A stretch of 52,258 nt of DNA, from IMG/VR virus record IMGVR_UViG_2721755660_000011. One strand, written 5' to 3'. The notes under the pieces are model-generated. The model was not told the DNA's origin. It made no database searches and worked only from the letters and a program-made list of their open reading frames with translations. Position 1 is the first letter of the stretch; each line of letters begins with the position of its first letter. Source of the stretch: a virus (taxonomy: Duplodnaviria > Heunggongvirae > Uroviricota > Caudoviricetes). Below, in pieces: positions 26,892-39,829 of this stretch. A program made the translations under genes and the position numbers.

Positions 26892-28463
26892 TTACTGAGA
26901 GGTCAGATCAACTTTCCAGGGCAACAGATCGCGTACCCGGTTTGCCGGCCAGTCCTGGATATGCTCAATGACGTAACGCAGCCATTTTTCTGGTTCCACA
27001 TTGTTCAGACGGCATGTGCCGATCAGCGAGTACAACACCGCCGCATGTTCGCCACCGCTGTCGGAACCCGCGAAGAGCCAGTTTTTCCGGCCTACGGCCA
27101 CTCCCCGTAAGGCGTTCTCTGCGATGTTGTTGTCGATTTCCACCTGGCCATTACTGCAGTACACGTTCAGGCCATCCCACTGTTTCAGCAGGTATGCGAA
27201 CGCTTTTGCCGTATCCGAGTGACGCGACAGTGTTTTCATCTGAGTCTGTATCCAGTCATACAGTGACTGCATCAGTGGCGCAGCTCTGGCTTTTCTTGCC
27301 GCCAGACGCTGTTCTGCTGTACATCCCCGGACTTCTGCCTCTATGGCATACAGTTCACCGATACGCTGCAGGGCTTCCGTGGTGATGTCGGTGGGCACTC
27401 TTGCATGCACATCGTGGATTTTTCTCCGGGCATGAGCCATACACGCGGCTTCCGTTATTCTGCCGGATTCGTATAACACCCGGTAACCACCGTAAGCATC
27501 GGCCTGAAGCACACCGCTGTAACCGGCCAGATGATTCTGTGGATGGACGCCTTTCCGGTCCGGGCTGTACGCGAACCAGACCGCCGGAGGCATCTGTGAA
27601 CCGGCGTTACGGTCATCACGGACGTAGACCCACAGCCGGGCAGTCCTTGTTTTACCACTGCCCGGCTCCTGGACCGGGACGGGGATATCATCGGCATGGA
27701 CTTTACCGGGCATCAGCACATACTGGCGCAGGACGTCATACAGCGGCTCCAGCAGTTCAGCAACGGCACCTGTCCAGCGCCCCAGCGTGGCGCGGCTCAG
27801 CTCCACGCCCTGGCGACGGTATATTTCTGACTGGCGGTATAACGGCAGATGGTCTGCATATTTCCCGGTGACAACATGGGCCAGAAGCCCCGCTCCGGCA
27901 TAACTGCGTGCAATGGGTTTTGAAGGTACTGGTGCCTGCACGATATGGTCGCACCGGCAACAGGCCAGTTTCGGACGTTGTGCTTCGATAACCTTAAAGG
28001 CGCTGCTGATAAGCTCCAGTTGCTCTGACACATCACATCCCAGAGAACTGAGTTCGCCACCACAGGCCGGGCAGCATTCCTCTTCCGGCCGGATAACCCG
28101 GGTTTCACGGGGAAGTGAGGTCGGTAACGGTTTACGGGCAGAAGACTGGCGCAGGGGGGATGGCAGTGCCGGGTCATATTGCTCACCCAGCGTTTCTGCC
28201 ATTTCTTCCTGAAGTGCGCTGATTCGCTCCTGTGCTTCCTGTATCTGCCGTTCGGTTTTTGCACGAAGTTTTTCTGAGCTTTTACCGAACTGCATACGCT
28301 GCAGTTTCGCAACCAGCGCCTTCAGCCGGTTGATTTCGGAAGCATAAGCCGCCACCCGCTGTGAGAGCAGGCGGTTGTATTCAGCCATCTGGCGGATGGT
28401 GTCCTGTTGTGTCTGCAACAGTGCCCGCAGGCGGGCATTCTCATGAGCAAGTGAGGTGTCCAT
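26892..28463 (-). CDS. IS66-family transposase TnpC
   Basis: 523 aa; N-terminal coiled-coil region then CxxC...CxxC zinc-binding and DDE domain typical of IS66 TnpC. Confidence 0.85.
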
Positions 28464-28482
28464 ATCCTCACTTTACATCGGG

Positions 28483-28830
28483 TTATATGCGGATTCCAGC
28501 GCGTTCCGTTCGTTTCGGGTGCTTCCAGTTGATGCCCTCAAGAAGCATGGACAACTGAGCCGGAGTAAGGTGAACCTTTCCATCGCGGGTGACCGGCCAG
28601 ACGAAGCGGCCCCGCTCCAGGCGTTTGGTGAAGAGGCACAGTCCGTCGCTGTCAGCCCACAACACTTTTATCTGGTCACCCCGGCGTCCGCGGAAGATGA
28701 ACAGATGCCCGGAGAACGGGTCATCCTTCAGGACGTTCTGAACTTTTGATGCCAGGCCGTTAAAACCATTTCGCATGTCGGTGATACCGGCAACCAGCCA
28801 GATACGTGAACCGGCAGGGAGAGATATCAT
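28483..28830 (-). CDS. IS66-family accessory protein TnpB
   Basis: 115 aa, MISLPAGSRIWLVAGITDMRNGFNGL... typical IS66 orfB product. Confidence 0.85.
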   Translation of the reverse strand: MISLPAGSRIWLVAGITDMRNGFNGLASKVQNVLKDDPFSGHLFIFRGRRGDQIKVLWADSDGLCLFTKRLERGRFVWPVTRDGKVHLTPAQLSMLLEGINWKHPKRTERAGIRI

Positions 28831-29480
28831 CAGTGGCTGCTCCCTTTCATTTCGCGGATAAGTGTCTGTAATAACGCCGGTGTCAGTTCACCTTTCAGCC
28901 TGAGAGTTCCGGCCGGCAGAACCAGCTCGCAGCACAGACTGTCTGGCAGTGTATTTATCTGTTCAGGTATCTGCACTGGTGCCGGGATTTTATTATCCGG
29001 CTCCGGAGTTAACGTCACGGGAAGTAGCGATGTTTCATGTTCGCCGGGCGGCTGCAGGCCGCCGTTACGCCAGAGATGCCGCCAGTTAAAGAGCAGGTTA
29101 TCGTTGATTCCGTTCTCACGAGCTATTTGTGCGACACAGGCACCGGGTAAAAGAGTCCGCTGAACAAGTCTCCATTTAAACTCCGGTGAAAATCGGTTCC
29201 GGCGGGGTTTCTCTGCTTTCACAGGCTGAGTCACGGTCGGGGTTGAAGGATATCGCCCCGGGAAAAGAGCCCGGGCCAGTTGCCCGCAGGAATATTCACC
29301 GGAAAGGGGCCAGTCAGTGAATACCTGGTGAAATCGCCTCACCAGAGAAAAAATGGCGGTTTTGCTGACACCAGTCTGCGCAGAAATGCGCGGGTACGAC
29401 AGTGACTCGTCAAATCTCAGCTGTAGCACACGCAGGATCAATTCCGGATTATCTGCCAATACCGCCTTTCGTGCATTCAT
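28830..29480 (-). CDS. IS66-family accessory protein TnpA
   Basis: 216 aa, HTH-containing IS66 orfA-like protein; start-overlaps tnpB stop. Confidence 0.75.
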   Translation of the reverse strand: MNARKAVLADNPELILRVLQLRFDESLSYPRISAQTGVSKTAIFSLVRRFHQVFTDWPLSGEYSCGQLARALFPGRYPSTPTVTQPVKAEKPRRNRFSPEFKWRLVQRTLLPGACVAQIARENGINDNLLFNWRHLWRNGGLQPPGEHETSLLPVTLTPEPDNKIPAPVQIPEQINTLPDSLCCELVLPAGTLRLKGELTPALLQTLIREMKGSSH

Positions 29481-30482: not shown

Positions 30483-30965
30483 CTATTTCAGGCACTGAGT
30501 ACGGATATATTCCTGAAGCGTTCTCAATGCTGCCTGGTCGCTGATGATTCCGTCTCTGATACCGAGAACGTTTCGTCCAGCAACTGGAGAGAGTTCGACG
30601 CTGGCATCATTGCCCACGCGGGCGGTGGCGGTGGCTTCACGCACGGAGCCTGGACAGGTGGCGTTGATCCGCAGGCGCTTACGACCAGCGGTAACATCAG
30701 CACGCAGAGTTTCATTTTCAGCTCTCGCATCGGCTAATTCCCTCGAGTATTTTGCATCGAGCGCAGCAACATCGTGCTGGCGCTGCTGCATGTCAGCGAT
30801 GGTGGCGGTCGCCTGCTTCAGCTCACTGACTTTTTTATCACGCTGTTCTTTGTAGGCGATGGCGTTATCACGGTAATGATTGACCGCCCACGACAGGCAG
30901 ACGATGATGCAGATAACCAGAGCATAAATAATCGCGGCGACTCTGCTCACTGATCTATCCCCCAA
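30483..30965 (-). CDS. Rz: Spanin inner membrane subunit Rz
   Basis: 160 aa ORF; matches lambda Rz / DLP12 RzpD ([26 protein letters not shown]...); true start may be the GTG at codon 6. Confidence 0.85.
30524..30730 (-). CDS. Rz1: Spanin outer membrane lipoprotein Rz1 (embedded in Rz, +1 frame)
   Basis: 68 aa; lipobox LVVSAC; proline-rich (PPPPPAW) like lambda Rz1; wholly inside Rz in another frame. Confidence 0.75.
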
Positions 30966-31480
30966 CAGGCTAATGCGCTTTCCTGGTCACGACGAATAAC
31001 CTGTCCATAGCAGTTATTTGAACGTATGCGGCAATCGCGCCCACCATCTTTTATCCACCAGCGAATCGCCTCGCATGCACCCTTACGATCACCGGCATTC
31101 AGCCGCTTATAAAACGTCGACGGGAAACACTTACCGGGGCCAATGTTATAGGGACAAAATGACGCTATACCCGCTTTCTGTGGTTCGGTCAGTGGTACTT
31201 TAATATTGCGTTCCACCCATGCCAGCGCCTTATCACGTTCAATAGCGTTAACCTGGTCGCATTTTTCCTTCGACAGCTTCATTCCCGGTATGACGGGCTT
31301 ACCATCCACCATTGTGGCACCACGACAGATGGTCCATATACCGGAACCATCGCGGTATGCCGTAGTGTGGTTACCCTCTTTTTCATCCAGAAACTGGTCA
31401 AGTATTTGAGGAGCAGACGCGCCTGCAGCAATCAGCGCCAGAACGGCAGCCGACAGGCCGTATCTGATTTTTGCGTTCAT
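30947..31480 (-). CDS. R: Endolysin (lysozyme, signal-anchor-release type)
   Basis: 177 aa; matches my recollection of DLP12 RrrD lysozyme ([43 protein letters not shown]...); N-terminal hydrophobic SAR-like segment. Confidence 0.85.
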
Positions 31481-31543
31481 GGATATTTATCAGGATTTAT
31501 CGGTTTCTGCCCACGGACAGGTTTATCTGTTCCGGTCAGTGGC

Positions 31544-31894
31544 TTAAGGTTGTGATTCCGGAGGAGTCTTCAGAGAACCAGTAATTCTTCCTGGTAGCTC
31601 TCCTTTGTAGGTTATCCACACATTCTGCGCCTCTAAAATTACGGGGCGCTTTTCCGGCGACTGCTCATCCCCTTCACATAACCCGGCAGCAACATCCAGG
31701 AAGACCTGTCTGATGCGCCTTCTGGCTGCTGCTTCATAAAACTCCAGCGCGGCACCTTCAACACGGTCCAGCGAGATGTCCAGGTCAAAAATTTCACCGT
31801 CAAAGCGTTTTTTGTCCCGTAACGCTAAAGTTACCGTAACTTTATTCTCAAAATTGCGGATCCCTTTCACAATCAGTTCATAGTTTTGAGTCAT
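31544..31894 (-). CDS. Hypothetical protein between holin and endolysin (YdfR-like position)
   Basis: 116 aa ORF between S and R, a position occupied by ydfR in the K-12 Qin prophage lysis cassette; family assignment is by position and size only. Confidence 0.4.
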   Translation of the reverse strand: MTQNYELIVKGIRNFENKVTVTLALRDKKRFDGEIFDLDISLDRVEGAALEFYEAAARRRIRQVFLDVAAGLCEGDEQSPEKRPVILEAQNVWITYKGELPGRITGSLKTPPESQP

Positions 31895-31898
31895 TGAA

Positions 31899-32114
31899 TT
31901 ACTCTCCCCGTGCAGCCTTACGCTTGTCTTCTCTGATTTTGAAGTACAGATTTGTCAGATAAGTCAGGAAGCCCAGAACCAGACTCCCCAGTACACCAAT
32001 CGCAGCCCACTGTGACGGACTGACCTGATCAAGCCACTGTAAAAACCAGTAGCCAGCACTGCCTGCGGAGGTGCCGTAGGCAATGCCCGTTGAAATTTTG
32101 TCCATGGATTTCAT
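31899..32114 (-). CDS. S: Holin (phage 21 S / DLP12 EssD-like) with dual-start motif
   Basis: [71 protein letters not shown] matches phage 21 S holin; Met1/Met4 dual start typical of antiholin/holin. The longer ORF to 32192 probably overcalls the start. Confidence 0.85.
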
Positions 32115-32225: not shown

Positions 32226-32378
32226 TTATTCAGATTTGCGCAGTAAAGGCCGGAGCACGACCAGCACCATCACCACCAGCACACCATCTGCCAGTACCGA
32301 CATCAGCCGTCCGGTAAAATCCACCACCACTACCAGAAACAGCAGGATGGCAGCCAGCACAAGGCGCGCACTTTTCAC
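32226..32378 (-). CDS. Putative small hydrophobic membrane peptide (50 aa, GTG start)
   Basis: Hand translation on minus strand: VKSARLVLAAILLFLVVVVDFTGRLMSVLADGVLVVMVLVVLRPLLRKSE; GTG start overlaps the stop of the upstream 141 aa ORF in a GTGA arrangement. Not in the ORF track (under 60 aa). Confidence 0.3.
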   Translation of the reverse strand: MKSARLVLAAILLFLVVVVDFTGRLMSVLADGVLVVMVLVVLRPLLRKSE

Positions 32379-32800
32379 AGGTACTGCTCCAGTGGTAGCT
32401 GCAGCGCCTGAGCAATTTTCTTCAGTTGCGCTTCTTCATCCGGGCCAATGCCGTCCTGGTCAGCGATATCCAGACACAGGCACAGCACATTAACTGCGTC
32501 ATCAGTACCGGCAACATCAGCCAGCTGACGAAGGGCTTCAGCATTGGCAGAGCGCGGCGACGCTTCATAACGGGCGCGGATATTTGCACTCATTTGTGCA
32601 ATCTCACCGGAGAACGGCGCAAAGGCAGGAAGTGCTGCAATGGTTTTCTCCAGTACCGCGATTTCTTTCGCGTCACAGGTGTCGTCAGCGTATGCAATGG
32701 AATACGCACCCCAGACGGTCGCCTCCACTGCGTCGCGGTTCTCCATCTTCTTCACTTCGGTAATGGCCTTGCGAGTTTTCTTTTTGAAAATACCAAACAT
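32375..32800 (-). CDS. Hypothetical acidic alpha-helical protein (cargo at stx-equivalent position)
   Basis: 141 aa ORF downstream of the phage tRNA cluster and upstream of the holin; composition Ala/Glu/Asp-rich; possible TerB-like fold is a guess only. Confidence 0.5.
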   Translation of the reverse strand: MFGIFKKKTRKAITEVKKMENRDAVEATVWGAYSIAYADDTCDAKEIAVLEKTIAALPAFAPFSGEIAQMSANIRARYEASPRSANAEALRQLADVAGTDDAVNVLCLCLDIADQDGIGPDEEAQLKKIAQALQLPLEQYL

Positions 32801-32974
32801 CGTGACTTTTCCTTTTAGTGGGTGAGCCTGCGCCCGGGGGTGACCAGCCCACAGAGAAAGTCACACTGACCATCCCGTAAGCTCACCCCTGAAAGGCTCT
32901 GTGGTTTTTGATATGCGCCGGGCGTGGCGCGGATACAAAAAAGGCCCGCCAAAGCGAGCCGGGAAAAATAAGTC

Positions 32975-33051
32975 TGGCGCGTTGTACTGGATTCGAACCA
33001 GTGACCGATTGCTTAGAAGGCAATTGCTCTGTCCGACTGAGCTAACAACGC
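32975..33051 (-). tRNA. tRNA-Arg (anticodon UCU), phage-encoded (argO/argN-like)
   Basis: Reverse complement GCGTTGTTAGCTCAGTCGGACAGAGCAATTGCCTTCTAAGCAATCGGTCACTGGTTCGAATCCAGTACAACGCGCCA folds as canonical cloverleaf; anticodon loop CTTCTAA. Confidence 0.8.
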
Positions 33052-33064
33052 ATGATGCAGATAA

Positions 33065-33145
33065 TGGACCGCCATCGAGGACTCGAACCCCGCACCAACA
33101 ACCCTGTTATCGTGTCGTCTGCTCTTCCTGATGAGCTAATGGCGG
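33065..33145 (-). tRNA. tRNA-like gene with noncanonical anticodon arm (possible argN-like or pseudo-tRNA)
   Basis: Reverse complement has a good acceptor stem (CCGCCAT / ATGGCGG), D-arm (GCTC...GAGC), T-arm (CGGGG TTCGAGT CCTCG) and CCA, but I could not fold a standard 5 bp / 7 nt anticodon arm by hand; 81 nt. Confidence 0.4.
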
Positions 33146-33152
33146 TATGTTA

Positions 33153-33228
33153 TGGTGGCCCTTGCTGGATTTGAACCAGCGACCTGGCGATTATGAGTCG
33201 CTCGCTCTCACCACTGAGCTAAAGGGCC
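33153..33228 (-). tRNA. tRNA-Ile2-like (anticodon CAU), phage-encoded (ileZ-like)
   Basis: Reverse complement GGCCCTTTAGCTCAGTGGTGAGAGCGAGCGACTCATAATCGCCAGGTCGCTGGTTCAAATCCAGCAAGGGCCACCA closely resembles E. coli ileX-type tRNA; anticodon loop CTCATAA. Confidence 0.8.
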
Positions 33229-33268
33229 GGGCGCAGGATAATAACGGTACATAACTAATTCTGCAATA

Positions 33269-34327
33269 TCATCCGTTCTGACTGACTAAATCCTGAACTT
33301 CCTTGACCGTCTGCTCAAAACGCTCAGTCTCCAGCTCAACGCCAATTGCACGACGTCCCAGCGCCATCGCTGCTTTGACCGTCGAACCCGACCCCATGAA
33401 AAAATCTGCAACCAGATCTCCCGGACGACTGCTTGCGCTGATTATCTGCTGCAACATTTCTGCCGGTTTTTCGCACGGATGTTTCCCGGGATAGTACTGC
33501 ACCGGTTTATGCATCCACACATCGGTGTACGGCACCTGCACAGTCACACCGAAATACCGCCGCAAATTTTTATATTCTCTCAGCAGTTCCGTATACTGCC
33601 GGTTCAGTTCACTGTATGTGCTGACCAGCTGGTGGTGTGGCTGCTCCAGTTCACCGCGCTGATGTTTTTCTGCTGCAACACGCGCAAACAACGCCTGCAA
33701 TTTGTTGTAATCAGCTTCGTTCGGTAACTGCCACTGACTGGTACCAAACCAGTGCGAAGCCATGTTTTTCTTTCCGGTGGCTTCCGCTATCTGTTTTGAC
33801 GTTATTCCCAGTTCGGCACGAGCATCCCTGAAATACGATATCAGCGGTGCCATTATGTGCTGTTTGAGTTCCCTTTCTTTTGCCGCATAGCCGTCACTTT
33901 TGCCGCGATATGGCCCCTGGTAATGTTCAGCAAACAGAACGCGCTCTGTGGCAGGAAAATATGCGCGCAGACTTTCTTTATTACACCCATTCCAACGTCC
34001 AGACGGCTTCGCCCAGATGATATGGTTAAGCACGTTGAAACGTTCACGCATCATGATCTCAATATCAGATGCCAGGCGATGCCCACAGAACAGGTAAAGG
34101 CTTCCGGCAGGTTTCAACACCCGCCAGAACTGGGCCAGACAGTGGTCCAGCCACTTAAGATAATCTTCGTCCCCTTTCCACTGATTGTCCCAACCGTTGG
34201 GTTTCACCTTGAAGTAAGGCGGATCGGTAACAATCAGGTCAATGGAATCATCAGGCAGGGACTGAATAAAATGCAGGCAATCAGCGTTGATTAAATCAAC
34301 ACTGTTTATTTTTACAGTATTTTTCAT
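33269..34327 (-). CDS. DNA methyltransferase (amino-MTase, likely N6-adenine or N4-cytosine), apparently orphan
   Basis: 352 aa; motif IV DPPY near N-terminus (LIVTDPPYF) and motif I FxGxG near C-terminus (DFFMGSGSTVKAA); no adjacent restriction endonuclease ORF. Confidence 0.8.
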   Translation of the reverse strand: MKNTVKINSVDLINADCLHFIQSLPDDSIDLIVTDPPYFKVKPNGWDNQWKGDEDYLKWLDHCLAQFWRVLKPAGSLYLFCGHRLASDIEIMMRERFNVLNHIIWAKPSGRWNGCNKESLRAYFPATERVLFAEHYQGPYRGKSDGYAAKERELKQHIMAPLISYFRDARAELGITSKQIAEATGKKNMASHWFGTSQWQLPNEADYNKLQALFARVAAEKHQRGELEQPHHQLVSTYSELNRQYTELLREYKNLRRYFGVTVQVPYTDVWMHKPVQYYPGKHPCEKPAEMLQQIISASSRPGDLVADFFMGSGSTVKAAMALGRRAIGVELETERFEQTVKEVQDLVSQNG

Positions 34328-34477
34328 GGATCAGTAAGCGTAACTCTGGTAGGCTCACTCTGCTTTTGCGCTAAAGCAGTGGGCCGTGGTTCGCTTGTGA
34401 CCAGTAAGCATGAGCGAATGGCTGGCAGGTGCTACCAACACCCACCAGCCGCCCATTTTCACAGCAGGAAACCGCCA

Positions 34478-34765
34478 TTACTGGCAGCGTCTGAATTTAT
34501 TCCCGTACCCGCCGTTATCCTTCGCCAGACCCGCCAGAACTAACTGAGTCAGTATTAACTGGCACCGGACTTCGCTTACTCCGGTAGTTCTCGTCATCAT
34601 GCGTGGCGTTACCCACTTGTCAGCAGGTAAGAAATGAAGGACTGCGGCGGCGGTTTCTGTCATATCTTGCTGTTTTAGCATGTTTTTTCCCTTCTGGTTA
34701 ACATGACATACCAATAACTCTTGTCTAAAAAGCCAGCAAGATAAAAAGTCAGTATTCACGACCAC
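34478..34765 (-). CDS. Hypothetical protein, first ORF downstream of putative late terminator
   Basis: 95 aa ORF; real start may be the internal Met at about 34681 (MLKQQDMTETAAAV...). Confidence 0.35.
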   Translation of the reverse strand: MVVNTDFLSCWLFRQELLVCHVNQKGKNMLKQQDMTETAAAVLHFLPADKWVTPRMMTRTTGVSEVRCQLILTQLVLAGLAKDNGGYGNKFRRCQ

Positions 34766-34801
34766 CAGCGTGTTTACTGTACTGCACCAAGTTTACAGGT
34801 A

Positions 34802-34820
34802 CAAAAAAACCGCTCAGCGG
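34802..34820 (-). terminator. Candidate tR'-like terminator (short GC hairpin followed by T-run on minus strand)
   Basis: Minus-strand sequence CCGCTGAGCGG followed by seven to eight T; located between Q region and the late genes, as tR' is in lambda. Stem is only 4 bp, so weak. Confidence 0.35.
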
Positions 34821-34950
34821 CGGGTTTAAGTTGTGTGGCGAAGTAACCACTCTTAACAGCATATTTGATTTTTTACGATTGTAAACGGTTGATTATTCAT
34901 CTCCAATAAAAATAATTGTGTAGGTATGCCCTTAACAATGGATAAGAAAC

Positions 34951-35397
34951 ATGAATAAAATGACTGTATTATTACTTAGCGCAACTATCATTTCAGGTTG
35001 TACTTCTTCCGTACCATTGATAAAGAAAACTCAATCAGGAAAACCTGAGGGGGTTTATCAAAATACGACAAAAGATAAAGTCAAAGATGCCCTTGTGAAT
35101 TACTGCAATAGTAGAGGGTTGATAATTTACAACGCGGATAACAGCAGTGTTATATGTGGTAAAGAACTGGAAGGCGGGTCTGCTGTTTTTGGACAAATGT
35201 TAATCGGCAATGCCTATTCAACAACCCCGGTATCAAAAGTCAGATTTACTATCGCTCAAGTTAATAACGATACAAAAGTGTGGGCCGATATGTGGATGGA
35301 AACTCAAATGGCAATGGGGCAAGTACAACAAATGGCTATAACAGACAACGCAAGCAAAAACACTATCCAACAACGTCTTGATGAATTAAAACCTTAA
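34951..35397 (+). CDS. Lipoprotein (moron), opposite strand to flanking phage genes
   Basis: 148 aa; signal peptide with lipobox IISGC (MNKMTVLLLSATIISGCTSS); AT-rich flanks; sits between Q and the late operon on the opposite strand. Confidence 0.6.
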   Translation: MNKMTVLLLSATIISGCTSSVPLIKKTQSGKPEGVYQNTTKDKVKDALVNYCNSRGLIIYNADNSSVICGKELEGGSAVFGQMLIGNAYSTTPVSKVRFTIAQVNNDTKVWADMWMETQMAMGQVQQMAITDNASKNTIQQRLDELKP

Positions 35398-35417
35398 GTA
35401 AATTAATTAAATAAAAT

Positions 35418-35440
35418 GGGGAGAAATAAATCGACTCCCC
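35418..35440. terminator. Hairpin between convergent lipoprotein gene and Q (likely terminator for minus-strand early transcript)
   Basis: ggggag ... ctcccc inverted repeat with 11 nt loop; T-rich on the minus-strand downstream side. Confidence 0.45.
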
Positions 35441-35482
35441 ACACATTAAACTGATTCAATTACCCCCTCAATAAGAGGTCTT

Positions 35483-35848
35483 CTAACGATCCATCTCTAG
35501 CTCAATTTCTAACATCATTAACATGCCATCAACTACACCTTCAGCCTTTTGCAATAAACGCCCAACCCAGCAATCAGAACGCCCATGTTTACGGGCAAGC
35601 GCCATAAACGTCATACCACCTACATAATAATCCACTAATAAATCGTGCAAATCGCTGTTGTTCTTTTTCAGGCGAGCCATGCACCCACAAATGATCATCG
35701 CGTCATCGTCACAACATTGCGGGCGGGATTTTACTTTTGAAGGGATTAGTCCTTTAAATCCTGCAGCAATAGACGACCAGGTGACATCCTCGTGATTATT
35801 TGCCACCCATGCCCCCCAACGTTCAAGAACCATTTGAATATCACGCAT
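35483..35848 (-). CDS. Q: Late gene antiterminator Q (QuuD-like)
   Basis: [74 protein letters not shown] matches my recollection of DLP12 QuuD; start placed at internal Met of ORF 35483..35863. Confidence 0.8.
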
Positions 35849-35865: not shown

Positions 35866-36855
35866 TCAGGCCAGAACGCCAATTGCCAGCGCACGATCGA
35901 TAAAACGAAATATCAGCTCCAGCTGGGAGCCATACTTCTCTTCAAATGCCACGGTATCCGCATGCAGCTCGTCGTGATGCTTTCTGCACAAAGGCAACAC
36001 AAAAAGGTCATGCGCTTTTGTTCCCATTCCACCCTGACCGTGACCTATCAGGTGGTGGGGATCATCAGCAGGCTTTCCACAACATGCACACGGCTGTGTC
36101 TTAACCCAGCGCGTGTACTTTTCATTAACCCAGCGGCGACGTTTGGGGCGTAACATAAAAGACTCCGGCGACTCCGGATCCACTTTCAGCGCCAGCACCT
36201 TTTTCGCTTTATCCTGGATGATGCTGGTGGCAGGAACCGAAGGCACAAGGTCACACTCCCGGGTGACAGACGGCACAACAGGCGTCGGTAATCTCAGTGC
36301 CTTACGGGCTGCACTTTCCGGTAAGGCATCCGCCAGGTCATTACGAGCCAGCCACCAGCATAGTTCCGGCATTGTCACAACGTGACTGTCATCAAAACCG
36401 AGATCCCGACGCACGACAGATAACACCCACCGGGCACAGTTATCCGTTGCCATTGATTCCAGCCGTTCCGTGAACTGATCGCGCAGCTGGTTATCGCAGT
36501 GCCAGCACAGACGGATTGCGCCCGGAGCGTGTCGCATTGTGGTCATATTCTCGCTGTGCCAGTCGGAATGAGGCCACTGGCAGCCTTTTTCACGAAGTAA
36601 CCAGCGTTCAAGACATTCCACGCCACCAGCACGACGGATTACCGCCTCATTGCGGAACATAGCCCGAACGGCAGGATCATCCGCCAGCGGTTGTGATGCC
36701 GCCGGAACGGCACCACTGGCAAAAGATGAATAACGTTCCGGCTCAGGCTCCAGCAGGACACGCCCCTGCATAAACAGGGGCATCAGTTCTGAACCGGGTC
36801 TGAACAATACGATCCCCATACGTGGGGCAATTTCAGGGGTCAGTAGTGCTCTCAA
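35866..36855 (-). CDS. DUF968-like phage protein (YdfU-like), Cys/His-rich C-terminus
   Basis: 329 aa; adjacent to Q as ydfU is adjacent to quuQ in Qin; C-terminal C..CC and HH..H..GG motifs suggest metal-binding, possibly HNH-like. Confidence 0.5.
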
Positions 36856-38490: not shown

Positions 38491-39829
38491 CATAAGCGCT
38501 AACTTAAGGGTTGAACCATCTGAAGAATGCGACGCCTCGGTGCCTCGTTAAGACGATGCCTCGCGTTCTTCAATTGCGTTTTGTAGGCTGTCAGGGATAC
38601 TGTCCCACGAATGGCCACCTGTAAGCTCCAGATGACCATTTTTGTTATTCTCCACAACGAGTTAGTTCTTCTTTTCGGATCCGGCACTTCTGGGGGGGAA
38701 ATCCAGCGATGGCTGGATTATGTCGTCAATTAAAAATGCGGCGAGTAGATTAGCAAATATCCACGCTTTCGCGAGTTCAGGTTCCTTTGCACGCAAAGCA
38801 TCCAGGTGCAGCAAACTTTTGAGCCGCTTAAAAGCCAGTTCAATTTGCCATCGCAGACGGTAACAATCAGCCACTTGCTCTGCTGAATATTCATCTTCCG
38901 GTAATGATGTTAGCAATAGCACATGGCCCGCTGCTTCCAGCGTTTCCGCCTGAACTACTCGTCCTTTTCGACGATTCTCGCTGAGCAGTCGGGTTTTACT
39001 GATTAATGCTTTTTCGGGAGGAAGTGATACGGCAATGAGACGTGCCGGAAAGGGAGCTCCGGCTTTTTTATTACCTGAATTGCCTATCATTACAGTGGTT
39101 TCACCGTTCTTACCGCAATCCAGCCCGCGCAGAAAACCCATCATGTCAAAGCGCATTCCTTCTGCAGTTAACCAGCGCAATCCTCGCCAGTGAACCCGGA
39201 CGATATAATCAGCTTCTCCAAAAGCAAGTGAGCGGATACATTCGGGACGCGAACCGAATCCCCGGTCAGCAATGCGTATCTCGTCTGCCGTTTGCGCAAA
39301 TCGGTCCAGCCGTTCAGCGTCTCTGCTGTCGGTTAGCTCAAAATCAGTGAACTGACAGGTATGAGGATCATATCCCATATGTAGTCGCCATTCAGCGCTG
39401 CCGCCCCCGGGCGCACTGATTGCTGTTCCATCGACAAGACGCAATCTCTTTCCGCTTGTACAACCCGTAACTGCGGCGCGTACAGCAAGTGTTTGTGCGG
39501 CAAGTATGCCAAACCAGTCGGCGGCATTCCGCAGCCGCTTCAGGAGAGCCACGTCAGATAATGTTGCAACGTCATGGAGCTGAGCCCATGCAGTGACTTC
39601 ACGTAATGACATCCCCCCGGGGCCGTAAGCCAGCCCCAGACGTAGCAGAGTTGCAGCATCACGAATTTCGCGGCGGCGGGTTAGAGCCCCGGCATTACGT
39701 GCCGAAGTATCCAGTTCTTCGGGCTTACCAATATGGGCCAGAATTGCTGACCAGTTATCGTGAGAGTAATTCATCGGCACGTTAAATCATATCAGGCGTA
39801 ATACCACAACCCTTAAGTTAGCGCTTATG
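38491..39829 (-). mobile_element. IS186 insertion sequence
   Basis: Terminal inverted repeats cataagcgctaacttaagggttg (38491..38513) and its reverse complement (39808..39829); 1339 bp; single transposase ORF; flanked by 10 bp direct repeat. Confidence 0.9.
38662..39780 (-). CDS. IS186 (IS4-family) transposase
   Basis: 372 aa ORF (MNYSHDNWSAILAHIGKPEELDTSARNAGALTRRREIRDAATLLRLGLAYG...) matches my recollection of IS186 transposase. Confidence 0.9.
   Translation of the reverse strand: MPMNYSHDNWSAILAHIGKPEELDTSARNAGALTRRREIRDAATLLRLGLAYGPGGMSLREVTAWAQLHDVATLSDVALLKRLRNAADWFGILAAQTLAVRAAVTGCTSGKRLRLVDGTAISAPGGGSAEWRLHMGYDPHTCQFTDFELTDSRDAERLDRFAQTADEIRIADRGFGSRPECIRSLAFGEADYIVRVHWRGLRWLTAEGMRFDMMGFLRGLDCGKNGETTVMIGNSGNKKAGAPFPARLIAVSLPPEKALISKTRLLSENRRKGRVVQAETLEAAGHVLLLTSLPEDEYSAEQVADCYRLRWQIELAFKRLKSLLHLDALRAKEPELAKAWIFANLLAAFLIDDIIQPSLDFPPRSAGSEKKN

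Follow-up and report, generated by a model that had tools for sequence, protein, structure and literature searches.

An M.EcoGII-type DNA methyltransferase gene in the late operon of an Escherichia coli lambdoid prophage and the structured leader RNA preceding it

The stretch of viral DNA considered here (52,258 nucleotides in its full length, hereafter the window) contains a gene for an adenine methyltransferase that, judging by its sequence, belongs to the already characterised M.EcoGII family, and the enzyme itself is nothing new. Probably, it is a non-specific N6-adenine methyltransferase of the M.EcoGII type, with which the late operon of a lambdoid prophage begins, silent in the lysogen, induced through the antiterminator Q and serving the phage against restriction. 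A structured leader RNA immediately in front of the gene and its probable winged-helix partner are the only parts of this locus for which no prior description was found in the literature. The leader is possibly new and, in our opinion, a modestly interesting candidate for a regulatory RNA.

The window represents an E. coli lambdoid prophage inserted beside the tRNA-Thr(CGT) gene next to proA, and its tail and head genes extend down to about position 4400. E. coli OkiPb01715 and GB089 contain, with 100% identity, the 3.1-kb segment around the methyltransferase gene, and therefore the RefSeq annotation of the identical prophage was used for the window. In the direction of the minus strand, a KilA-N gene, a hypothetical gene, DUF968, Q, a reverse-strand ORF and a 67-aa ORF come before the methyltransferase gene, which is followed by three tRNA genes, a TerB-family gene, DUF3927 and the genes of holin, YdfR, lysozyme and Rz. 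Past the lysis genes, there is an IS66-family element and then the terminase and structural genes. Since the lysis cassette lies in the same operon, this operon is taken to be the late operon. On the late transcript, the methyltransferase gene would come second, after the 67-aa ORF, and would be the first ORF of large size, and the earlier note, which called it the first substantial late gene, was essentially right. The coordinates of all features are collected in the Table.

Table. Features of the methyltransferase locus and of the surrounding prophage in the window.
Feature	Position	Strand	Basis and remarks
Integrase gene	49637..50800		
DUF968/HNH-like gene	35866..36855	minus	PF06147, E=4.2e-80
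Q antiterminator gene	35483..35848	minus	PF06530, E=2.1e-51; RefSeq 'antiterminator Q family protein' in the identical locus
Cargo ORF, 148 aa	34951..35397	reverse-strand	
Predicted pR'-like late promoter, TTTACA-16 nt-TATGCT	34858..34885 (34885->34858)	minus	Consensus scan, 9/12 match
Initial transcribed segment and tR'-like intrinsic terminator	34799..34857	minus	Terminator scan
Gene of the 67-aa predicted winged-helix (wHTH) protein	34478..34681	minus	RefSeq WP_000917725.1; upstream of the methyltransferase gene
Structured leader RNA, ~135 nt	34328..34462	minus	Abuts the methyltransferase AUG; P1, P1ext, P4, P3, alternative P2
Methyltransferase gene	33269..34327	minus	ATG start, 352 aa, intact; M.EcoGII-family beta-class N6-adenine DNA methyltransferase
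tRNA block	32975..33228	minus	Directly downstream of the methyltransferase gene; ARAGORN, Rfam tRNA matches, RefSeq
tRNA with CAT anticodon (annotated tRNA-Ile)	33153..33228	minus	
Degenerate 'tRNA-OTHER'	about 33065..33145	minus	
tRNA-Arg(TCT)	32975..33051	minus	
Hairpin and T-run after the tRNA block	32960->32943	minus	Terminator scan
Lysis cassette: class II holin, YdfR/DUF1327, lysozyme, Rz	30483..32114	minus	PF04971, PF07041, PF00959, PF03245; RefSeq
IS66-family element	26892..29480		Between the lysis genes and terminase

The methyltransferase matches the profile PF01555 (N6_N4_Mtase) in Pfam over residues 29 to 341 (E=2.7e-44). All 221 profile positions are covered, and they are spread across 313 residues of the protein, which implies a large central insertion. 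The DPPY sequence (motif IV) begins at residue 35 and the FMGSG sequence (FxGxG, motif I) at residue 310, so that the motif order, IV...TRD...I, is that of the beta class. This bears out the description of the product in the earlier note as an amino-methyltransferase of 352 residues with DPPY ahead of FxGxG. Apart from PF01555, the Pfam scan at E<=0.1 gave two sub-threshold matches and nothing else. The closest solved structures are those of beta-class adenine methyltransferases, namely 8URK/9C3U, M.RsrI, CcrM and M.MboIIA, and their catalytic lobes align with residues 9-115 (motif IV) and 281-343 (motif I) of the window protein, whereas the TRDs of these site-specific enzymes cannot be aligned with it. 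The protein does not belong to the YhdJ (PRK11524) equivalog (114.5 bits against the NCBIfam cut-off of 292) or to the CcrM equivalog (70.4 bits against the cut-off of 830), and it is not of the Dam type (GATC), as the Pfam scan gave PF01555 and the motif order is beta. Phage 1720a-02 has a separate gene annotated as 'DNA adenine methyltransferase' in its nin region, where the window has a gene of a PerC-family regulator instead.

The window protein and M.EcoGII of E. coli O104:H4 (C227-11/HUSEC2011; EGT69837.1, WP_000935520.1) are identical in 306 of 349 positions (87.7%) over the full length. There are no large indels, and the lengths are 352 and 349 residues, respectively, the C-terminus of the window protein being 3 residues longer. 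Identity amounts to 90% in residues 1-134, 72% in residues 135-159, 83% in the TRD (160-237), 88% in residues 238-262 and 93% in residues 263-352; 13 of the 43 differing residues fall within the 78-residue TRD. The sequence WP_000935520.1 from HUSEC2011 was used for these comparisons in place of the M.EcoGII sequence in the supplement of PMC11551740, which was machine-read and contains the artefacts NHHIW, TKVP-Q and GRRRAIG; the two agree in 345 of 348 positions and differ at three sites resembling OCR artefacts. The same E. coli O104:H4 also contains M.EcoGI, a paralog of M.EcoGII. The native M.EcoGII module has the same composition as that of the window, i.e., DUF968, Q, cargo, 67-aa ORF, leader, methyltransferase, tRNAs and lysis genes, with no endonuclease. 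It contains two reverse-strand cargo genes, a spacer of 150 nt between the small ORF and the methyltransferase gene, tRNA-Ile/Arg/Arg, holin and lysozyme. The loci differ in the cargo genes between Q and the late promoter and in that the tRNAs of the window prophage are followed by a TerB-family gene and DUF3927. The 87.7% identity together with the matching locus architecture makes the window methyltransferase a positional ortholog of M.EcoGII.

Full-length relatives of the gene were found in 50 of 260 matching phage records, mostly of Stx-converting phages and also of cdtI, mEp460 and 1720a-02. The genes of 1720a-02, Stx2c phages, cdtI and mEp460 are 85-88% identical to the window gene in nucleotides and 86.6-90% in protein and are located, as in the window, between Q and stx or lysis genes. 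These phages carry stx or cdt, or no cargo, in the downstream slot, unlike the window prophage. The gene of 1720a-02 is 85% identical to the window gene in nucleotides, and its product is identical to M.EcoGII in 326 of 348 positions; Murray et al. called this methyltransferase 'very similar' to M.EcoGII. Among 5,426 complete E. coli genomes, 2,594 (48%) contain the gene in near-full-length form, in up to 8 places per genome. Beyond these, 80 related loci were compared, one genome per species, from many Enterobacterales genera. In all of them the gene occupies the position between the Q region and the lysis genes; DUF968 lies upstream on the same strand in 62 loci, Q of the PF06530 type is present in 40, and lysis genes follow the methyltransferase gene in most.

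M.EcoGII, a beta-class prophage protein of 349 residues, methylates adenines whatever their sequence context and stays silent during lysogeny (PMC5778455). Its biochemistry has been characterised, and it has served as a starting point for enzyme engineering. Its expression is toxic, and M.EcoGI, M.EcoGII and their homologs give no methylation signal in lysogens (PMC5778455, PMC6602927, PMC12707154). In a REBASE-based methylome study, homologs with about 92-94% similarity to M.EcoGI and M.EcoGII were listed as 'nonspecific', and no methylation attributable to them was detected in lysogens (PMC6602927). The allele in the window is probably also non-specific, in view of its sequence identity to M.EcoGII. 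The expectation that a recognition motif could be predicted for a site-specific enzyme probably does not hold for a positional ortholog of a protein that modifies adenine in any context (PMC5778455).

The earlier note had stated that no restriction enzyme gene is adjacent, and this proved correct for the whole 52-kb window, in which no restriction endonuclease was found by RefSeq annotation, by Pfam searches of the neighbours and window-end ORFs or by PADLOC. The matches to PADLOC models were the methyltransferase itself (MTase_II, PDLC03265, E=2.1e-155) and a KilA-N-related candidate model. No second methyltransferase is annotated by RefSeq in the 100%-identical prophage of OkiPb01715. The locus, without an adjacent endonuclease gene, is not a Type II restriction-modification system, and a non-specific enzyme would have no 'cognate' endonuclease. 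The DUF968/HNH-like protein was considered as a hidden partner nuclease and rejected, for it has no PADLOC match, its match to HNHc_6 of Pfam is marginal and it travels with Q. The Qin prophage of K-12 presumably contains DUF968 and Q without this methyltransferase.

The silence of such genes in lysogens can be understood from the region between Q and the methyltransferase. Phages 1720a-02 and cdtI, whose Q is of the same type as in the window, begin to be homologous to the window precisely at the 3' boundary of the -10 hexamer of the predicted late promoter, and by our own reading a TAnnnT-like hexamer is found at the matching alignment position in most of the compared loci. The terminator hairpin (34821->34809, GCCGCTGAGCGGT, GC-type, followed by T7) and its T-run are nearly invariant in the window, 1720a-02, cdtI, a Stx2c phage and the native M.EcoGII locus, and the segment transcribed ahead of the hairpin is common only to phages of the same Q type. 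The Stx2c phage has a Q of another type, and its homology to the window does not reach upstream beyond the hairpin; in the native M.EcoGII locus, the transcribed segment and the hairpin match those of the window, and the sequence before them is divergent. Breakpoints of homology at the -10 edge and at the hairpin are what one would expect if a Q-specific pR'/qut precedes tR'. Transcription from pR' of lambdoid phages is constitutive and, in lysogeny, ends at tR' (PMC7547250). From this, we infer the assignment of the promoter and the dependence of methyltransferase expression on Q. A promoter-proximal terminator explains the silence of M.EcoGI and M.EcoGII in lysogens and fits the reported toxicity. 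An StxS-like small RNA was rejected as an interpretation of this region because the pR' transcript would be about 50 nt here as opposed to 258/74 nt for StxS (PMC7547250) and has no Rfam match. Separately, Rfam gave a weak match to STnc130 on the opposite strand (26 versus 55 bits). The methyltransferase is mentioned neither in a paper on the pR' region (PMC6266700) nor in PMC7547250.

Thus, in the lysogen, transcription from the late promoter would stop after about 40-50 nt, where the hairpin and T-run lie, and the methyltransferase would not be made. This silence matters, since blanket adenine methylation is toxic. After induction, polymerase modified by Q would pass tR' and transcribe the 67-aa gene, the leader and the methyltransferase gene. 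The enzyme would then methylate, irrespective of sequence, a large part of all adenines of the replicating phage DNA before packaging. In a new host, progeny DNA would resist many adenine-methylation-sensitive systems of Types I, II and III with no need for matching specificity. Such an anti-restriction role was proposed by the authors of the M.EcoGII paper (PMC5778455) and repeated in a review of 2025 (PMC12707154), and a direct phage experiment showing this benefit for any family member was not found in the literature. Protection of phage DNA from restriction, which the earlier note had suggested, is the most plausible role of the gene. The phage would pay for this with toxicity and with exposure to m6A-dependent Type IV nucleases, which would target hypermethylated DNA (PMC11037411).

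Mom of phage Mu, whose regulation involves Dam, OxyR and the translational activator Com, is a functional analogue, although its protein and chemistry are unrelated to those of the window methyltransferase. Like enzymes of the M.EcoGII type, Mom modifies DNA, is silent in the lysogen and toxic, is switched on late and provides broad protection against restriction (PMC12707154).

Several other explanations have been weighed against this one. A site-specific orphan methyltransferase, in which substitutions in the TRD would confer a motif and a behaviour unlike that of M.EcoGII, might be suspected from the fact that the TRD is the most diverged folded part of the protein apart from linkers (83% identity), from the mosaic nature of the allele, in which residues 1-159 are identical to those of phage cdtI and the remainder has diverged, and from the RefSeq name 'site-specific DNA-methyltransferase' given to many homologs. 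Such database names, however, are generic pipeline labels. M.PflMI, the nearest relative of M.EcoGII with proven site specificity, is only 27% identical to M.EcoGII, and all six resurrected ancestors between M.EcoGII and its common ancestor with M.PflMI methylate both DNA and RNA (PMC11551740). The window protein is 87.8% identical to Anc291, 86.0% to Anc289, 72.0% to SUPREM and 66.5% to Anc250 (approximate values, as the references are OCR-derived), which would be compatible with a place in clade I, so activity on DNA and RNA extends to ancestors as distant as 66.5%, and no motif was found when M.EcoGII, Anc291 and SUPREM were studied by nanopore RNA sequencing (PMC11551740). We regard site specificity of the window enzyme as quite improbable. 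It is very improbable, too, that RNA is the main substrate in vivo, with m6A being placed on phage late mRNAs, adjacent tRNAs or host RNAs during lytic growth. M.EcoGII is indeed active in vitro on RNA and DNA:RNA hybrids, tRNA genes stand immediately after the methyltransferase gene and a structured RNA leader stands on it, but the initial rate of M.EcoGII on RNA is about 90-fold below that on DNA (0.12 vs 11.12; PMC11551740, Suppl. Table S3), and adjacency of tRNAs is typical of the Stx-like phage region, while the cdtI methyltransferase gene adjoins lysis genes without tRNAs.

The idea, also put forward in the earlier note, that the enzyme alters expression of host genes epigenetically finds a parallel in other prophage methyltransferases, e.g., M.EcoGIII, which affects about 1,900 genes. 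Regulation of host or prophage genes in the lysogen by the window enzyme is nevertheless extremely improbable and, for homologs, largely refuted: a promoter-proximal terminator stands before the gene, no methylation by homologs is seen in lysogens, and constitutive expression is deleterious. A different kind of explanation, compatible with an anti-restriction enzyme of the M.EcoGII type because it bears on present usefulness and not on the encoded product, is that the gene has no function in this strain and is carried along by a decaying prophage. The IS66-family element separates the lysis genes from terminase and IS421 lies inside rusA, interrupting it; in view of these insertions, the prophage may not be inducible and the gene may be idle here. 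On the other hand, the methyltransferase ORF, the leader, the small ORF, Q and the terminator are all intact, five complete genomes of different origin have the 3.1-kb region with at least 99.5% identity, and neither insertion hits a gene known to be essential to late transcription. Such a passenger state is therefore unlikely, although less so than the explanations discussed above.

The small ORF that would be transcribed ahead of the methyltransferase gene encodes a protein of 67 residues, and its homolog is found upstream of the methyltransferase gene in 54 of the 80 related loci, while the product in the native M.EcoGII locus differs in 1 aa. It has no match in Pfam. The ORF matches phrog_331, which has no assigned function, with the query being offset (an in-frame upstream extension at 34562..34765), and homologs are named as regulators of the TrmB, ArsR or IscR family in some database sources. 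An AlphaFold model based on an alignment of 26 sequences (pLDDT 70.8) consists of three helices; an earlier single-sequence model was discarded because of its pLDDT of 51. The top Foldseek matches of the model in the PDB are all winged-helix domains (TMq 0.63-0.66), with E-values that are not significant, and a profile search of PDB sequences gave weak matches to winged-helix segments. Most likely, as far as can be judged from the model, this is a stand-alone winged-helix protein binding nucleic acids.

Between this ORF and the methyltransferase gene, there is a highly conserved spacer of 147-154 nt in most loci having the small ORF, and no obvious Shine-Dalgarno sequence precedes the methyltransferase AUG. 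The fold of the leader in the window is better than that of all 200 shuffled sequences (z=-3.28). A sequence profile detected the leader in 60 of the 80 related loci, always ending at the methyltransferase ATG. As 21 of these loci lack the small ORF, the leader belongs to the methyltransferase gene. Rfam 15, applied to positions 32800..35500, gave only two tRNAs above threshold and nothing on 34328..34462 at E<=1. In a scan of viral contigs with a pattern fixing only the flanks of the hairpin, 80 loci were found; in 78 of them, an M.EcoGII-like gene begins 86-90 nt further downstream, and each of the 25 distinct interiors forms a hairpin when folded.

RNAalifold detected only the main hairpin in a mixed alignment, and a first alignment of 31 sequences showed moderate covariation, for which reason more divergent copies and a covariance model were used. 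The model built from 55 unique copies gives one strong match per locus and includes P1ext (AUGGGC/GCUCAU), the 12-bp hairpin P1, the hairpin P4 and the long-range helix P3 (GGUCA.AAGC/GCUU..UGAUC), which pairs nucleotides -3..-17 before the AUG. On the realignment of the leader, which leans towards the model and contains many closely related copies, these being also the sequences from which the structure was derived, 94.8% of the modelled pairs are formed as compared with 27-48% when partners were slid, and 23 of 39 pairs have changed on both sides as compared with 7.6+-1.8 in shuffles (0/500) and 6-9 in slid controls. With a structure-agnostic MAFFT alignment, 93.1% are paired and 16 pairs have changed on both sides versus 7.1+-1.9. 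The leader structure and its exclusive association with genes of the M.EcoGII family are well supported.

An alternative helix, P2 (UUCGCU/AGCGAA, up to 9 bp in the Yersinia copy), has strands overlapping P1ext and P3 and is incompatible with both. It covaries though it is outside the model (score 0.129 against 0.052 in shuffles, 0/500); one of its pairs occurs as CG in 29 copies, AU in 9, UA in 8 and UG in 5. In the leader, G.U pairs number 155 and A.C pairs 48, and this excess indicates an RNA on the methyltransferase-sense strand and disfavours an operator or palindrome at the DNA level. As an explanation of the conservation, a small coding ORF (ATG GGC GGC TGG TGG...) was rejected: the reading frame changes from homolog to homolog through insertions or deletions of one base in the hairpin loop, the putative ORF has 7 codons in most homologs and 33 in the window, and substitutions compensate pairs and do not concentrate at third codon positions. 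In the window, the calculated energy of conformation A (P1ext and P3) is -56.5 kcal/mol as compared with -52.3 kcal/mol for conformation B (P2), while B is the minimum-energy fold of the Yersinia copy. Nucleotides -3..-17 before the AUG are paired in A and free in B.

These properties tentatively suggest, with rather less than even chances in our estimation, that the leader is a cis-regulatory RNA toggling between A and B and thereby throttling or timing translation of the toxic methyltransferase. Candidates for the trigger might be the co-transcribed 67-aa protein, the RNA-binding methyltransferase itself or SAM/SAH. The function of a switch, its trigger and any role of the winged-helix protein at the leader are a matter of speculation.

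For annotation of prophages, it follows that genes of the M.EcoGII type are routinely labelled as 'site-specific' and that comparisons of lysogen methylomes will not reveal them. With the gene silent in the lysogen, the methylomes of a lysogen and a cured strain would be expected to show nothing, even with a fully functional enzyme. If the leader is a genuine translational switch, it would be a second lock on a dangerous enzyme in addition to antitermination, and the known regulatory RNAs would be extended by one that is specific to a family of DNA-modifying enzymes and precedes their genes. In that case, it might also help in the expression of M.EcoGII-type enzymes.

The start codon of the methyltransferase gene, which is without an obvious Shine-Dalgarno sequence, is directly adjoined by a conserved and structured leader RNA. 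The pairings in this RNA display strong covariation and form two mutually exclusive alternatives, one of which is predicted to sequester nucleotides -3 to -17 relative to the AUG. The leader was found in 60 of the 80 methyltransferase-related genomic loci (one genome per species), there solely in front of M.EcoGII-family genes, and a separate scan of viral contigs gave 80 hits, 78 of them preceding genes of the same family. No Rfam match was obtained for it.

Features in the window around the methyltransferase gene and at the prophage edge
Feature	Position	Strand	Match	Location and remarks
Omptin-family outer-membrane protease gene	1084..2037	+	PF01278, E=1e-129	
IS66-family element (tnpA/tnpB/tnpC)	26892..29480			Inserted between lysis cassette and small terminase gene
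TerB-family gene	32375..32800	-	phrog_632	Followed by small DUF3927 ORF
CAT-anticodon tRNA (annotated Ile) and tRNA-Arg(TCT)				Flank degenerate tRNA gene
Degenerate tRNA gene	about 33065..33145	-	RefSeq 'tRNA-OTHER'; no ARAGORN call	Middle of three phage tRNA genes
Structured leader RNA, ~135 nt	34328..34462	-		
67-aa ORF	34478..34681	-	phrog_331	Upstream of methyltransferase gene
Inferred pR'-to-tR' transcript	34799..34857	-		Predicted length only ~50 nt
148-aa ORF	34951..35397	+	phrog_3152	Reverse-strand; between Q and inferred late promoter
DUF968 protein gene	35866..36855	-		Immediately upstream of Q
IS421	38662..39780			Inserted in rusA

The 67-aa ORF is also kept in this position: 54 of the 80 loci have it, as does the native M.EcoGII locus. 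The ORF's product, for which there was no Pfam match, is modelled as a winged-helix domain. Residues 1–159 of the methyltransferase are 100% identical to those of the phage cdtI enzyme, whereas residues 160–352, comprising the target-recognition domain and the C-terminal lobe, are 64–85% identical. The allele in the window is thus a mosaic, which indicates recombination inside the gene.

A same-strand DUF968 gene is conserved in 62 of the 80 loci. Its product has a marginal match to an HNH-nuclease Pfam family (HNHc_6, 26.9 vs 26.6 bits) and no match among defence models, and no evidence was found for its functional link with the methyltransferase.

Downstream, the native M.EcoGII locus carries tRNAs Ile, Arg and Arg, but the middle one is degenerate in the window. 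The TerB-family and DUF3927 genes fill the post-tRNA slot that is held by stx in Stx-converting phages such as 1720a-02. With two inserted IS elements, the prophage may be a defective one or hard to induce. The omptin-family gene lies just past its tail-fibre end, in a low-GC segment (about 39–42% GC).

The segment between the predicted late promoter pR' and terminator tR' is conserved among phages with the same type of the antiterminator Q and has no Rfam match. Its short transcript is a possible counterpart of StxS, the sRNA arising from terminated late transcripts of Stx phages, although the lengths of the two are unrelated.

The N-terminus of the 148-aa ORF resembles a lipoprotein signal (...LLSATIISGC). 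Other reverse-strand cargo occupies the same slot in cdtI (orf53/54) and in the HUSEC2011 prophage (two hypothetical genes), and these differing contents suggest that the stretch from Q to the inferred late promoter is a hotspot of moron insertion.
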